Shown one piece after another: positions 3-4,991 of a stretch of 4,991 bases of DNA (its first letter is position 1; each line of letters starts with the position of its first letter). Source of the DNA: a virus (taxonomy: Duplodnaviria; Heunggongvirae; Uroviricota; Caudoviricetes); the IMG/VR virus record IMGVR_UViG_2706794678_000008. One strand, given 5' to 3'. Made by a program: the position numbers and the translations under genes. Below the pieces are notes generated by a model. It did not search any database, was not told the DNA's origin, and was given only the letters and a program-made list of their open reading frames with translations.

Positions 3-2748
3 TCAGAAACGAACGCATCATCAAGCGCCAGTAGCGCAGCTTCCTCGGCGACGGCGGCTGCAAATTCTGCGAAGGCGGCCAAAACGTCCGAGACGAACGC
101 CAGGTCTTCTGAAACGGCAGCGGGACAGAGTGCCTCAGCTGCGGCAGGCTCAAAAACAGCGGCTGCGTCGTCTGCCAGCGCCGCGTCAACAAGTGCCGGG
201 CAGGCCTCAGCCAGTGCCACCGCCGCCGGAAAATCGGCAGAAAGCGCCGCATCGTCTGCTTCAACAGCCACAACGAAGGCTGGCGAAGCCACTGAACAGG
301 CCAGCGCAGCAGCGAGGTCTGCTTCCGCAGCGAAGACATCCGAAACGAACGCGAAAGCGTCGGAAACAAGCGCAGAATCCTCAAAAACGGCTGCCGCATC
401 GTCAGCCAGTTCGGCGGCGTCATCGGCATCATCGGCGTCTGCTTCAAAAGATGAGGCGACCAGACAAGCGTCAGCAGCGAAGAGCAGCGCCACGACGGCA
501 TCCACGAAGGCGACAGAGGCTGCTGGCAGTGCGACGGCGGNNNNNNNNNNNNNNNNNNNNNNNNNNNNNNNNNNNNNNNNNNNNNNNNNNNNNNNNNNNN
601 NNNNNNNNNNNNNNNNNNNNNNNNNNNNNNNNNNNNNNNNNNNNNNNNNNNNNNNNNNNNNNNNNNNNNNNNNNNNNNNNNNNNNNNNNNNNNNNNNNNN
701 NNNNNNNNNNNNNNNNNNNNNNNNNNNNNNNNNNNNNNNNNNNNNNNNNNNNNNNNNNNNNNNNNNNNNNNNNNNNNNNNNNNNNNNNNNNNNNNNNNNN
801 NNNNNNNNNNNNNNNNNNNNCGGCGTCATCGGCATCATCGGCGTCTGCTTCAAAAGATGAGGCGACCAGACAGGCGTCAGCAGCGAAGGGCAGCGCCACG
901 ACGGCATCCACGAAGGCGACAGAGGCTGCTGGTAGTGCGACGGCAGCAGCTCAGAGCAAAAGTACGGCGGAATCTGCAGCAACGCGCGCTGAGACAGCGG
1001 CAAAACGGGCAGAGGATATTGCATCCGCCGTGGCGCTTGAGGATGCGAGCACGACGAAAAAGGGGATAGTACAGCTCAGTAGTGCGACTAACAGCACTTC
1101 CGAGTCACTGGCGGCAACACCAAAAGCCGTTAAGGCCGCGTATGACCTGGCTAACGGGAAATACACCGCACAGGATGCAACGACAGCACAGAAAGGGATA
1201 ATCCAGCTAAGCAGCGCGACCAACAGCACGTCTGAAACGCTGGCGGCAACGCCAAAGGCAGTAAAAGCAGCCAATGACAATGCTGAGAAACGTCTGCAGA
1301 AAGATCAGAACGGTGCGGATATCCCTGGCAAAGACACCTTTACGAAAAATATTGGTGCCTGCCGTGCCTTCGGTGGGTCAGTAAGCACAACAACAGGAAA
1401 CTGGACGACTGCACAGTTTATCGAGTGGCTGGATTCTCAGGGAGCATTTAACCATCCATACTGGATGTGCAAGGGTTCCTGGTCTTATGGCAATAATAAA
1501 ATCATTACTGATACTGGCTGCGGTAATATTCATCTCGCCGGAGCTGTCATTGAAGTAATGGGGATAAAGTCAGCGATGACGATCCGCATTACCACTCCGA
1601 CCACATCCAGCGGTGGCGGAACAACCAACGCCCAGTTTACCTATATTAATCACGGAACAGATTATTCACCTGGCTGGCGAAGGGACTATAACTCCAGAAA
1701 TAAGCCAACGGCATCAGAGATCGGGGCGCTACCGTCAGGTGGAACAGCAGTATCATCAGTTAATCTGGCTTCAAAAGGTCGGGTAGCCGCGCTGACAGAC
1801 AATACGCAGGGGGCAGCAGGTCTTGAGTTATACGAGGTGTATAACAACGGATATCCAACAGCGTATGGAAATATCATTCACCTGAAAGGGATGACAGCCG
1901 TTGGCGAAGGTGAGTTACTCATCGGCTGGAGTGGTACAAGCGGTGCTCATGCTCCGGCATTTATTCGTTCACGACGGGATACGACCGACGCAAACTGGTC
2001 GCCGTGGGCGCAGCTTTACACCTCGGCTCATCCTCCTGCAGAGTTTTATCCAGTCGGTGCACCAATCCCGTGGCCATCAGATACCGTTCCGTCTGGTTAT
2101 GCCCTGATGCAGGGGCAGACTTTTGACAAATCTGCTTACCCGAAACTTGCAGCCGCTTATCCGTCAGGCGTGATCCCTGATATGCGTGGCTGGACGATTA
2201 AGGGCAAGCCCGCCAGTGGTCGTGCCGTATTGTCTCAGGAACAGGATGGCATTAAATCGCACACCCACAGCGCCAGCGCATCCAGTACGGATTTGGGGAC
2301 GAAAACCACATCGTCGTTTGATTACGGCACTAAATCCACGAATAACACCGGGGCGCATACGCACAGTCTGAGCGGCTCTACAAGTTCAGCTGGGGCCCAC
2401 CAACATAGTCAGACTGGGCCCAGAACGAATAGCGGGAGTCAACCTACTGGAATGTTTCCGGCAGGGAGTACTCAAGTTAGCGGGACTAATCAGGTTGGTA
2501 TCAGTGGCTCATTAACCAGTGGCACCTCCCAATGGGTAGGTAAATCATCTTCAGAAGGAAACCATACACACTCACTGTCCGGCACAGCAGCATCTGCGGG
2601 TGCACACGCGCATACTGTCGGTATTGGTGCTCATACGCACTCTGTTGCGATTGGTTCACATGGACACACCATCACCGTTAACGCTGCTGGTAACGCGGAA
2701 AACACCGTCAAAAACATCGCATTTAACTATATTGTGAGGCTCGCATAA
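3..2748 (+). CDS. stf: Side tail fiber protein (lambda Stf-like), 5'-partial (gene begins upstream of window); reading frame interrupted by assembly gap 541-820
   Basis: Frame 3 is open without stops from position 3 to 540 and encodes Ala/Ser/Thr-rich repeats ([13 protein letters not shown]..., [21 protein letters not shown]...). After the gap the same protein continues in frame 1 (821-2748): the fiber motif [26 protein letters not shown] twice, a globular middle region, then a His-x-His-rich tip ending ...[31 protein letters not shown], stop TAA 2746-2748. The frame-1 Arg-rich translation before the gap in the ORF track (MPQLRQ...) is out of frame; the frame shift across the gap reflects an arbitrary gap length. 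Confidence 0.9.
415..944. repeat. Direct repeat flanking the gap: 415-538 and 821-944 (124 bp, 3 mismatches), coding the [21 protein letters not shown](S/G)[18 protein letters not shown] shaft repeat
   Basis: Direct comparison of the sequence on either side of the N run; the copies are offset by 406 bp (not a multiple of 3), so the true gap length and repeat copy number are unresolved. Confidence 0.85.
541..820. other. Assembly gap (280 N) inside the repetitive tail-fiber shaft coding region
   Basis: Uninterrupted run of n from 541 to 820, flanked on both sides by the same 124-bp sequence (415-538 and 821-944). Confidence 0.97.
1063..1272 (+). repeat. Two copies of a 26-aa phage tail-fiber motif G-I-[VI][23 protein letters not shown] (1063-1140 and 1195-1272), period 132 bp
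   Basis: Protein-level repeat with largely synonymous nucleotide divergence between copies; this motif is recalled from P2 gpH, lambda Stf and T4 fiber proteins. Confidence 0.8.
2361..2572 (+). other. Hypervariable block A of the fiber tip (encodes ...[64 protein letters not shown]...)
   Basis: Region where unit A and unit B lose nucleotide similarity; bounded by conserved His-x-His-containing flanks. Confidence 0.75.
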
Positions 2749-2750
2749 TG
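2736..2750 (+). promoter_or_regulatory. Shine-Dalgarno (GAGG) plus overlapping stop/start TAATG; translational coupling of stf to the downstream ORF
   Basis: GAGG at 2736-2739, 8 nt upstream of ATG 2748; TAA 2746-2748 shares one nucleotide with ATG 2748-2750. Confidence 0.6.
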
Positions 2751-3800
2751 GCATTCAGAATGAGTGAACAAGCACGGACCATAAAAATTTATAACCTGCT
2801 GGCCGGAACTAATGAATTTATTGGTGAAGGTGACGCATATATTCCGCCTCATACAGGTCTGCCTGCAAACAGTACCGATATTGCACCGCCAGATATTCCG
2901 GCTGGTTTCGTGGCTGTTTTCAACAGTGATGAGTCATCGTGGCATCTCGTTGAAGATCATCGGGGTAAAACGGTTTATGACGTGGCTTCCGGCGACGCGT
3001 TATTTATTTCTGAACTCGGTCCGTTACCGGAAAATGTTACCTGGTTATCGCCGGAAGGGGAGTTTCAGAAGTGGAACGGCACAGCCTGGGTGAAGGATAC
3101 GGAAGCAGAAAAACTGTTCCGGATCCGGGAGGCGGAAGAAACAAAAAACAACCTGATGCAGGTAGCCAGTGAGCATATTGCGCCGCTTCAGGATGCTGCA
3201 GATCTGGAAATTGCAACGGCTTATCCGTCAGGCGTGATCCCTGATATGCGTGGCTGGACGATTAAGGGCAAACCTGCCAGTGGTCGGGCCGTATTGTCTC
3301 AGGAACAGGACGGCATTAAATCGCATACCCACAGCGCCAGCGCATCCAGTACGGATTTGGGGACGAAAACCACATCGTCGTTTGATTACGGCACTAAATC
3401 CACGAATAACACTGGTGCGCATACCCATAGTTTAAGTGGCAGCACGAATGCAGCTGGTAATCACAGCCATAGAGATGGCCGTCGATTTAACCCCAGTGTT
3501 TTTAAAGATACTTATCAATATGGTTATACAAGCTCAGGTCAAAATACCTGGGGTGTACAAGGCTCAGTAGGTATGTCTACGGGGTGGTTAGCGAATACCA
3601 GTATAGATGGTAATCATAGCCATTCACTGTCCGGCACAGCAGCATCTGCAGGTGCACACGCGCATACTGTCGGTATTGGTGCTCATACGCACTCCGTTGC
3701 GATTGGTTCACATGGACACACCATCACCGTTAACGCTGCTGGTAACGCGGAAAACACCGTCAAAAACATCGCATTTAACTATATTGTGAGGCTCGCATAA
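2748..3800 (+). CDS. Chimeric ORF: tail fiber assembly protein N-terminal domain (about aa 1-157) fused in frame to a duplicated side-tail-fiber C-terminal tip (about aa 158-350)
   Basis: ATG 2748-2750 overlaps the stf stop (TAATG) with GAGG at 2736-2739. The N-terminal 157 aa ([44 protein letters not shown]...) are near-identical to the downstream tfa. From 3219 the ORF continues into [18 protein letters not shown]...[11 protein letters not shown], matching the C-terminus of the upstream fiber except for the hypervariable block. Stop TAA 3798-3800. Whether the fusion is a functional product or a by-product of the duplication is unknown. Confidence 0.7.
3425..3624 (+). other. Hypervariable block B of the duplicated fiber tip (encodes ...[60 protein letters not shown]...)
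   Basis: Counterpart of block A in unit B; 12 bp shorter, more AT-rich and richer in aromatic residues; the same His-x-His positions are retained at both edges. Confidence 0.75.
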
Positions 3801-3802
3801 TG
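3788..3802 (+). promoter_or_regulatory. Shine-Dalgarno (GAGG) plus overlapping stop/start TAATG; translational coupling into tfa
   Basis: Identical arrangement to 2736-2750, carried within the duplicated unit: GAGG 3788-3791, TAA 3798-3800, ATG 3800-3802. Confidence 0.6.
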
Positions 3803-4381
3803 GCATTCAGAATGAGTGAACAAGCACGGACCATAAAAATTTATAACCTGCTGGCCGGAACTAATGAATTTATTGGTGAAGGTGACGCATATATTCCGCC
3901 TCATACAGGTCTGCCTGCAAACAGTACCGATATTGCACCGCCAGATATTCCGGCTGGTTTCGTGGCTGTTTTCAACAGTGATGAGTCATCGTGGCATCTC
4001 GTTGAAGATCATCGGGGTAAAACGGTTTATGACGTGGCTTCCGGCGACGCGTTATTTATTTCTGAACTCGGCTCATTACCGGAAAATGTCACCTGGTTAT
4101 CCCCGGAAGGGGAGTTTCAGAAGTGGAACGGCACAGCCTGGGTGAAAGATGCAGAAGCAGAAAAACTGTTCCGGATCCGGGAGGCGGAAGAAACAAAAAA
4201 CAGCCTGATGCAGGTAGCCAGTGAGCATATAGCGCCGCTTCAGGATGCTGTGGATCTGGAGATCGCAACGGAGAAAGAAACCTTGTTGCTGGAAGCTTGG
4301 AAAAAGTATCGGGTGTTGCTGAACCGTGTTGATACATCAACTGCACCGGATATTGAATGGCCAGTAGCACCTATAGGGTAA
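3800..4381 (+). CDS. tfa: Tail fiber assembly protein (lambda Tfa family), full length, 193 aa
   Basis: ATG 3800-3802 overlaps the preceding stop (TAATG) with GAGG at 3788-3791. The protein [44 protein letters not shown]...[34 protein letters not shown] is recalled as closely similar to lambda Tfa and E. coli prophage Tfa proteins. Stop TAA 4379-4381. Confidence 0.92.
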
Positions 4382-4991
4382 ATTCGTAATGATTACCTAA
4401 ATACGTTATTCTTTTGTTAAAAAAGTGATTTTGCTATAGGTAGGGAGTATGTTCTTGGATTAAGAATAAAAAATCGCCATGAAAGAGCTTCATGGCGAGT
4501 ACATAAACGTACAAAATGTGATGAAAGTAGAGTGGCGTAAGCCACTATATTAAGATATGACAATAGCGAAGAAAAGTAAATAACATTTTATGGACGTTTA
4601 ATTGTTAATTATAAAAACTAGAGTGCCCGATATTGTTTATCTTGCTTTAAAATAATGTACTCAAACCAAATTTTTGAGCTAAAAGCTCAAATAATATAAA
4701 TGCAATAATAATGTTTAATAAGACAATTAGCTTGCTTTGTATTTTCATTTCGGAATACTGTTAAGTAACTTTGATGACCCTAACAATAGATCGGAATTTT
4801 CTTAGAGTCAATGGTCACTGTTTTTGCTTGCAAAGCAAATGTTTTGGTGGTTATAAGTCGTCTTAATATAGTCACGCATGCAACTTGTTCCATGCGGAGA
4901 TTAAAGATTGGAATATAACGCGAAGATGGAATTAAATTACATTTGCAATAATTAATTTATTATTACTCAATAATTACCGATATTATTATTG
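4382..4991. other. AT-rich non-coding region downstream of tfa; no ORF of 60 aa or more on either strand
   Basis: Abrupt GC drop immediately after the tfa stop; only very short ORFs (35 aa or fewer) without convincing ribosome-binding sites; several small hairpins (e.g. ttgagct-aaa-agctcaa at 4674-4690). Confidence 0.6.
4462..4497 (-). terminator. Putative rho-independent terminator for a leftward (minus-strand) transcript
   Basis: Perfect 9-bp stem cgccatgaa (4475-4483) / ttcatggcg (4489-4497) with 5-nt loop. On the minus strand the hairpin is followed by AUUUUUUAUU (complement of 4465-4474). On the plus strand the run is an A-tract upstream of the stem, so it is weaker as a tfa terminator, though bidirectional action is possible. 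Confidence 0.45.

Follow-up and report, generated by a model that had tools for sequence, protein, structure and literature searches.

The window, a 4,991-nucleotide stretch of Caudoviricetes DNA (IMG/VR record IMGVR_UViG_2706794678_000008), contains two fibre ends of about 195 residues with seven His-x-His motifs each. We consider it probable, at roughly 0.8, that these are two known tip alleles, most likely from two prophages, which were interleaved by an assembler. The two cassettes are ordinary, already known alleles of the lambda Stf / T4 gp37 receptor-binding tip family. The initial annotation had described two alternative tip cassettes carried by one phage, which we do not uphold, as the second copy has no shaft, is fused to a truncated chaperone and is accompanied by no switching device. 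Nor could the side-by-side placement of the tips in the genome be confirmed, as position 3219|3220 has the signature of a join between contigs and the adjacency is most likely an artefact.

Layout of the window

All coding features lie on the plus strand. The window opens in the Ala/Ser-rich shaft of stf (3..540, frame 3), which belongs to the left-hand contig, enters from upstream of the window with its frame-3 translation open, and is 93-96% identical to stf of complete genomes. Beyond a run of 280 N (541..820), the distal part of stf continues in frame 1 and ends in tip A (821..2748). Tip A terminates a complete fibre, with Pfam matches to Phage_fiber_2 repeats and to the Collar domain upstream in the same frame. 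It comprises a left conserved arm (2155..2360, from AYPSGV through the first two His-x-His motifs), which aligns to T4 gp37 from residue 849; the 212-nt variable block A (2361..2572), a tip subdomain bounded by motifs 3 and 4; and the fibre part of a right conserved arm (2573..2748), which holds motifs 5 to 7 and the C-terminal 11-residue sequence.

The first 157 codons of tfa follow (2748..3219). At 3219..3220, nucleotide 471 of tfa passes with 1 nt of microhomology into the fibre sequence AYPSGV, at what is probably a contig join, and a second copy of the tip begins: left conserved arm (3220..3424), the 200-nt variable block B (3425..3624, again a tip subdomain) and the fibre part of the right conserved arm (3625..3800). 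The ORF at 2748-3800 is thus chimeric, consisting of 157 tfa codons and 193 fibre codons, with copy 2 as its 3' part. It begins as tfa does, with GAGG and then an ATG overlapping the stf stop, and would be translationally coupled in the same way; its Caudo_TAP domain is incomplete, the match being cut at profile position 97 of 131. An intact tfa of 193 aa lies downstream (3800..4381), its start overlapping the fibre stop. It has the full Caudo_TAP domain (PF02413, 4.2e-44, profile positions 1-130 of 131), and the exact protein is also encoded on a contig from another assembly (L004). The tip of copy 2 follows tfa codons without a fibre shaft and begins inside the collar domain, at T4 residue 849; the absence of a full fibre upstream of it is most likely due to the join being artefactual.

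The two copies are closely similar outside the variable blocks. The left arms (2155-2360 and 3219-3424) differ at 7 of 206 nt and the right arms, extended into tfa (2573-3219 and 3625-4271), at 16 of 647 nt. An exact repeat of 376 nt (2644..3019, equal to 3696-4071) is the probable point at which the paralogues were swapped: within the tfa part of 2748..3219, SNPs of a second allele appear from 3020 onward, and 2950-3219 is identical to a locus (L008) of TUM9757.

The two tips and their variable blocks

We found that both tips are homologous to the T4 gp37 tip (PDB 2XGF chain A; E = 2.6e-59 for tip A, query residues 1-197, and 1.1e-61 for tip B, residues 152-350 of the chimeric ORF). The five His-x-His motifs listed in the initial annotation are all present, but the count is seven per copy, at positions 36, 68, 82, 137, 151, 160 and 169 of tip A and 36, 68, 82, 133, 147, 156 and 165 of tip B. 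All seven are in register with T4 H883, 915, 929, 966, 980, 989 and 998, and all seven are also found in 51 of 86 family representatives. The two motifs missing from the earlier list (HQH/HSH and HTH/HSH) are those that bound the variable block. The link to the iron needle of T4 gp37, which the initial annotation had drawn, is therefore one of real homology, given these E values and the alignment of all seven motifs.

The same alignment bears out the earlier placement of the variable segment at the distal tip. With domain limits taken from PMC6957217, the block falls between T4 H931 and H966 and aligns to T4 932-965, the interval of the 'tip' subdomain (932-959), which lies at the distal pole and makes contacts with LPS and OmpC (PMC6957217). 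T4 gp37 (2XGF; collar D10 and needle D11, the latter with 'stem' and 'tip') shares more than 60% identity with the arms, has its seven motifs at the same positions and the same C-terminal 11-residue sequence, and carries its variable block in the same place. It differs in having 34 residues between motifs 3 and 4 rather than 52 (A) or 48 (B), and its block has no detectable similarity to either A or B (z about 0). T4 is, moreover, a myovirus, whereas the fibre examined here is that of a lambdoid siphovirus prophage.

By analogy with 2XGF and the literature, three chains would intertwine to form the needle, with each of the seven His-x-His motifs contributing to an octahedral iron site that staples it. 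The chain would run out along the needle, form a small distal head (the variable block) that may contact LPS or an outer-membrane protein, and run back; folding of the fibre would need the Tfa chaperone encoded directly downstream. In the 'T4- and lambda-based RBP family', the distal ~215 residues are conserved except in the segment that sets receptor specificity, where the divergence lies, and the fibre gene is directly followed by one for a Tfa/gp38-type chaperone (Magaziner and Salmond 2022, PMC9659904). The window has the same architecture as the lambda Stf/Tfa members of this family, with nothing essential different, and the gene order in relatives is J-lom-stf-tfa. The lambda match itself is 92% identical, in four pieces covering 70% of the query, and the block carried by lambda is distinct from A as well as from B.

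Of the 52 residues of block A that lie between motifs 3 and 4, 37 are S, T, G, Q or N and two are aromatic; for the 48 residues of block B the corresponding counts are 26 and seven. GC is 0.514 in block A and 0.43 in block B, against 0.51-0.55 in the flanks. The residue counts and GC values agree with the earlier description of A as Ser/Gly/Thr/Gln-rich and of B as more aromatic and AT-richer. The blocks are divergent, as had been stated, but to say that they differ completely was an overstatement: their global alignment has 17 identities and scores 4.7 sd above shuffled sequences, a score reached by none of 2000 shuffles. Hypervariability between conserved elements was likewise confirmed, as the 86 family representatives share on average 0.75-0.93 identity with tip A in the arms, against 0.15 in the block; across 88 sequences, block length ranges from 8 to 55 residues.

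Separate searches with each block, as the initial annotation had proposed, located natural carriers of both. Block A is present in 25 of 5426 complete E. coli genomes (98.6-100% identity) and had no match in any phage record, nor was an isolated phage with tip A found. Block B is present in 1144 of the 5426 genomes, in seven lambdoid phages and in the T-even-type myovirus P896; no receptor data for the tip-B phages were found in the literature. Elsewhere, both blocks always occur in single-copy fibres. The match between block B and the P896 fibre reaches 91% DNA identity (44 of 48 residues), whereas the flanks reach only 68-77%, and P896 is AT-rich. This supports the earlier suggestion that block B has a different origin, and its occurrence in a T-even myovirus fits its low GC. 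It is plausible that tips A and B have different receptor specificities, although the search brought up no characterised receptor for either.

Contig boundaries and the apparent duplication

The run of 280 N is an assembly gap within a duplication that is provably false: 415-540 is repeated at 821-946, the repeated segment occurs once in relatives (L002, L005, L007 and L009), and deletion of 541-946 yields a single open frame of 779 codons. The right-hand contig starts at 821, which is 52 nt before its first discriminating SNP at 873, and copy 2 starts at 3220, which is 52 nt before its first discriminating SNP at 3272. The value of 873 had been predicted from the offset at 3220 before the repeat at 821 was examined. 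A distance of 52 nt from contig start to discriminating SNP is characteristic of a node boundary in a k=53 de Bruijn assembly.

Comparison with other genomes points in the same direction. Contig L004, from the assembly of a clone-mate, is 100% identical to 1014-3019 and 4072-4991 of the window and has one copy of the tip. When the foreign segments are placed in natural order they match contiguous tip-B stf-tfa haplotypes at 99.1-99.3%, and the sequence specific to the second prophage has 1 mismatch in 676 nt to TUM9757, a genome with two prophages that have identical J and Lom and different tips. In the sibling draft L009, only one N separates a tip-A contig from the tip-B contig that follows it, the order being that of the window, and the gene caller has read this join as a 938-aa chimera.

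Our preferred explanation is that one prophage has exactly the arrangement of contig L004, with tip A, its own tfa and an AT-rich right end, and that another resembles the TUM9757 locus in carrying tip B and a second allele of tfa. In a k=53 de Bruijn assembly, these paralogues would be inseparable over the identical 376 nt and the path would swap there; scaffolding would then have placed the contig specific to the second prophage after that of the first, so that 1052 nt appear duplicated in tandem and a chimeric Tfa'-tip ORF results. Both the location of the two alleles at separate loci and the role of the joining software are what we infer. False (heterotype-like) duplications in draft assemblies similarly set diverged copies side by side on a scaffold near contig joins, and are known to produce spurious gains of genes as well as chimeric gene models (Ko et al. 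2022, PMC9516828); the present case differs in that the copies would be paralogous prophage loci of a haploid genome rather than haplotypes, and in that one join has no N.

The junction itself was sought widely. The exact sequence across 3219|3220 had no match in GTDB representative genomes, IMG/VR or JGI metagenomes, and megablast found none in the 5426 complete E. coli genomes; recurrence of the junction, which would mark a genuine tandem duplication, was thus not seen, and the start of copy 2 coincides with a k=53 node boundary. The exact fusion protein is not on record. A search of 5.8 billion proteins for homologous fusions gave no Tfa-N-to-tip fusion among the 120 best-scoring of 8000 candidates scored; the matches listed included only a reverse-order fusion (P0001) and deletion fusions. 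A further candidate for a tfa-then-fibre order, H61, was rejected, as it has the normal stf-tfa order and the query pieces had been joined out of order.

Some features of the junction nevertheless count against an assembly artefact. The join has no N, whereas the other joins carry 280 N (the window) or one N (L009), and no tool that abuts contigs without N was identified. The left end at 3219 is not at the last SNP plus 52, and no polymorphism was present at 3167 in the seven alleles checked, so that the artefact reading does not account for how the contigs were joined so seamlessly. Furthermore, the junction is in frame and is surrounded by patchy microhomology (TTGCA.C.G), as would also fit real illegitimate recombination.

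These last features are shared by the foremost alternative, which we regard as improbable: that the duplication is real, the locus being merodiploid and partway through an exchange of tips. The 3' end of the fibre gene and the 5' end of tfa, together 1052 nt, would have entered a tip-A prophage from a tip-B prophage by one illegitimate event (circularisation, or a template switch at 3219|3220) together with a homologous crossover in the 376-nt stretch, and the reciprocal SNP pattern does fit a single crossover there. The virion would display tip A only. RecA or Red would then resolve the locus by a deletion from one direct repeat to the other, a crossover in the right arms giving tip A (the L004 form) and one in the 206-nt left arms giving a tip-B fibre with intact tfa; the outcome would be a one-way, stochastic change of host range. 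In silico, either way of resolving the locus leaves an intact fibre gene, lambda is known to recombine experimentally with the stf-tfa regions of Rac and Qin (PMC3945230), and the boundary between the N- and C-domains of tfa is a natural module boundary, ECamp52 keeping only a C-terminal tfa remnant. However, a real duplication gives no account of why copy 2 should start 52 nt before the first SNP, an offset matching the proven contig start at 821. The arrangement is also a singleton in all collections searched, the clone-mate contig has one copy, and in L009 contigs of these two kinds have been wrongly joined by the pipeline. We give slightly less credence still to the tandem as a merodiploid host-range module in which tip A is displayed, tip B is silent, homologous recombination could collapse the locus to either allele, and the Tfa-N::tip-B protein might dock on the fibre end as a second adhesin. 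If true, the layout would be a natural snapshot of prophages exchanging their receptor-binding tips, and possibly a one-step host-range switch.

It is far less probable that the Tfa'-tip-B fusion is itself functional, its Tfa N-domain docking on the end of the tip-A fibre to present a second needle, as a piggy-back adhesin like T2-type gp38, or the protein serving as a soluble receptor decoy. The ORF is intact, has the translational coupling described above and retains the portion of Tfa to which fibre binding is ascribed, and mature Ur-lambda and Mu particles are reported to keep their Tfa (PMC9608196), which would provide a model for such docking. All of the evidence for an artefact applies here too, however; in addition, the fusion is without the conserved C-terminal Tfa domain, its fibre part begins within the collar domain, and the protein search returned no homologous fusion among its best-scoring candidates. 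Programmed switching, through an invertible segment (Mu G, P1 C, e14 P) or a diversity-generating retroelement, is scarcely credible and, within the window, refuted. The known invertible systems combine inverted orientation with a Din-family invertase and crossover sites. Here, alternative fibre ends do lie close together with tfa sequence after each, as in those invertible systems with their own tfa-type genes, but the copies are direct rather than inverted, the window has no invertase or reverse-transcriptase ORF, Din-type crossover cores are not above chance (one weak match against 2.2 expected), and the blocks differ in length and throughout rather than by adenine-specific substitutions. 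No further ORF of at least 40 aa lies wholly within 4564-4991, stops break all six frames of 4382-4991, and internal promoters or terminators are not above chance.

Significance for tail-fibre loci

The interleaving of two prophage alleles, which remains our preferred reading, carries a caution: where tail-fibre loci occur in several prophage copies, scaffolded short-read drafts can contain false duplications that look convincing, and chimeric 'fusion' proteins from such drafts can enter protein databases (for example, P0121). As for the tips themselves, the segment between His-x-His motifs 3 and 4 of gp37/Stf-type fibres is, in keeping with textbook knowledge, an exchangeable host-range determinant, and one that moves between temperate siphoviruses and virulent T-even phages.

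Repeat structure and gene layout

The window carries a direct repeat with a period of 1052-1064 nt, in which block A (2361-2572, within tip A of copy 1) and block B (3425-3624, within tip B of copy 2) diverge between matching arms. The 206-nt left arm (2155-2360 = 3219-3424) has seven mismatches and a longest perfect run of 86 nt; the right arm (2573-3219 = 3625-4271) has 16 mismatches and includes 376 nt of perfect identity (2644-3019 = 3696-4071). The window opens within a lambdoid side tail fibre gene (stf) coming in from upstream; its distal part is read first in frame 3 and, beyond a run of 280 N (541-820), in frame 1 up to its end at 2748. Two ORFs lie 3' of stf, both on an ATG overlapping the stop of the preceding gene: ORF2 (2748-3800, 350 aa), which encodes the first 157 residues of the tail-fibre chaperone Tfa and, joined to them in frame at nt 3219, 193 residues from a fibre C-terminus, and ORF3 (3800-4381, 193 aa), an intact Tfa chaperone. 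The remainder (4382-4991) is ORF-free, with 29.5% GC. This AT-rich stretch 3' of tfa is 99% conserved in relatives, where an AraC-family gene comes next; within the stretch are a weak inverted repeat (4531-4555 / 4861-4885, 76% complementary) and, on the minus strand, a terminator-like hairpin (4498-4474).

Origin of the tandem

The tfa-to-fibre junction (3219|3220) was found in none of 5426 complete E. coli genomes, nor in GTDB species representatives, IMG/VR or JGI metagenomes. Exact look-up returned no record of the ORF2 protein, and among the top-scoring hits of a search of 5.8 billion proteins there was no fusion of the Tfa N-terminus to a tip; the fusions that did appear were one in reverse order and others made by deletion, as is typical of decayed prophages. 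Other chimeric proteins ending in these tips do exist (P0016, P0010, P0150, P0001): a terminase GpA N-terminus is fused to the tip-B fibre in 480 contigs, an Rz-like N-terminus is joined to a tip-A fibre that is frameshifted after 'SQWVG', and there are ClpP-like protease-fibre and, by internal deletion, fibre-tfa proteins. Such chimeras are probably in part real scars of prophage decay and in part assembly chimeras.

The exact ORF3 protein led to a contig in another draft assembly (L004) that has one copy, with tip A, tfa and the same downstream sequence. As L004 is 100% identical to window positions 1014-3019 plus 4072-4991, the window equals L004 plus 1052 nt, with the distinguishing SNPs of the extra piece within 3020-3695. 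Reordered naturally, this insert reads through as a contiguous tip-B stf-tfa haplotype, which many genomes match at 99.1-99.3% identity; its allele-specific sequence has a single mismatch in 676 nt to strain TUM9757, whose two lambdoid prophages agree fully in J and Lom but differ in their fibre tips. Taken together, the L004 identity, the contiguous tip-B haplotype and the TUM9757 prophage pair indicate that the window interleaves two paralogues, with the swap inside the identical 376-nt stretch.

Copy 2 begins at 3220, and its first discriminating SNP follows exactly 52 nt later, at 3272. Position 873 was predicted from this offset (3272 - 3220) before the repeat at the gap was inspected, and the contig right of the gap does start at 821, with its own first discriminating SNP exactly 52 nt on, at 873. 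In a de Bruijn graph, a paralogue-specific node starts k-1 bases before the first distinguishing base; two independent 52-nt boundaries thus indicate k = 53 and mark 3220 as a contig start. Around the N-run a false duplication is provable: 415-540 is repeated at 821-946 with four mismatches and a spacing of 406 (not a multiple of 3), the segment is present once in four relatives (L002, L005, L007, L009), and deletion of 541-946 leaves one open frame of 779 codons. Because merging the repeat copies restores this frame, the listed 872-aa ORF (130-2748) is spurious at its 5' end, an out-of-frame Arg/Pro/Gln-rich reading through the N-run. In the sibling draft L009 (CXEP01000296.1), a contig carrying tip A, truncated at window position 2537, is joined to a contig with another shaft and tip B, in the same order as in the window and across a single N (at 2051, inside block A), and the chimera was called as a gene (938-aa P0121). 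In its region 3356-4378, after the tip-B fibre stop, L009 also shows an apparent 296-aa macro-domain ORF with HxH-like motifs in its C-terminal part, and the tfa that follows seems to lack ~63 nt. The cassette pair and the Tfa-tip fusion ORF most likely reflect a false duplication such as has been documented in draft assemblies (PMC9516828).

A real tandem, that is, a merodiploid locus, is in our judgement improbable. The 52-nt offset at 3220 fits a contig start, and nothing would favour a biological breakpoint at that spot; on the other side, the join at 3219|3220 is seamless, unlike the other joins, which carry N, its left end does not sit at the 'last SNP plus 52' position, the junction shows patchy microhomology, and the fusion keeps the reading frame. 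Experiments also show that lambdoid stf-tfa regions recombine frequently (PMC3945230), and tfa is broken close to a natural module boundary. ECamp52 (NZ_CP196304.1, 2338-6120) has, at the same chromosomal site (bio / ybhB side), a fibre ending in an S74 endopeptidase (an intramolecular chaperone) and retains only a 132-nt C-terminal tfa remnant, with homology to the window from 4239, which marks the border between the Tfa N- and C-domains as a module boundary; fibre binding is the role of the non-conserved N-domain, and trimerisation is driven by the conserved C-domain (PMC9608196). If real, the merodiploid would resolve to tip A via the right arm and to tip B via the left. A programmed fibre switch is rejected: the window offers neither an invertase, a reverse transcriptase nor a crossover site in its favour, and no internal promoter or terminator supports it.

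Tips and variable blocks

Over their whole length, both C-termini match the T4 gp37 tip of the crystal structure 2XGF (E 2.6e-59 and 1.1e-61), and each carries seven H-x-H motifs that line up with T4 H883, 915, 929, 966, 980, 989 and 998. The T4 needle holds seven iron atoms along its length, and residues 932-959, between motifs 3 and 4, make up the distal-pole 'tip' subdomain, to which LPS and OmpC contacts have been mapped (PMC6957217). The variable blocks map precisely onto this interval, with 52 residues in A and 48 in B against 34 in T4. Across 86 aligned family representatives, identity to tip A is 75-93% in the arms and 15% in the block, which is 35% gapped and spans 8-55 residues. The fibre tips of the window share an architecture published for T4, lambda and >200 phages (PMC9659904): flanks that are conserved, a receptor-specificity segment that varies, and a chaperone gene downstream. 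The likeness to gp37 proposed in the initial annotation is thus true homology; its description of H-x-H motifs and blocks is correct, and alignment to the T4 tip subdomain rules out a variable block lying away from the distal tip. The family and its alleles are already known.

Elsewhere, both blocks belong to ordinary single-copy fibres. Block A occurs in 25 of the 5426 complete E. coli genomes (98.6-100% identity) and was found in no phage record. In P0147, a 541-aa fibre with T4-like arms, the block ([26 protein letters not shown]...) is a relative of tip A, so tip A has counterparts on T-even-style scaffolds as well, though it is absent from every isolated phage record. Block B is present in 1144 of the 5426 genomes, and also in seven isolated lambdoid phages and P896 (OL451225.1, 2457-2903), a virulent T-even-type myovirus (Gaprivervirus).

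The initial annotation described block A as Ser/Gly/Thr/Gln-rich and block B as richer in aromatics and in AT, which holds; that the two differ completely does not, as their global alignment scores 4.7 s.d. above shuffles and they are not unrelated. It had also proposed a different origin for block B. The P896 block is 91% identical in DNA (44 of 48 residues), against only 68-77% for the flanking arms, and P896 is AT-rich, with a block GC of 0.41; this supports a separate, T-even-related origin of block B, and shows that the moving unit is the block itself. De Paepe et al. treated stf as the special case of temperate-virulent exchange (PMC3945230). The difference in identity between block and arms indicates that a virulent myovirus and temperate lambdoid phages have recently exchanged the tip subdomain alone.
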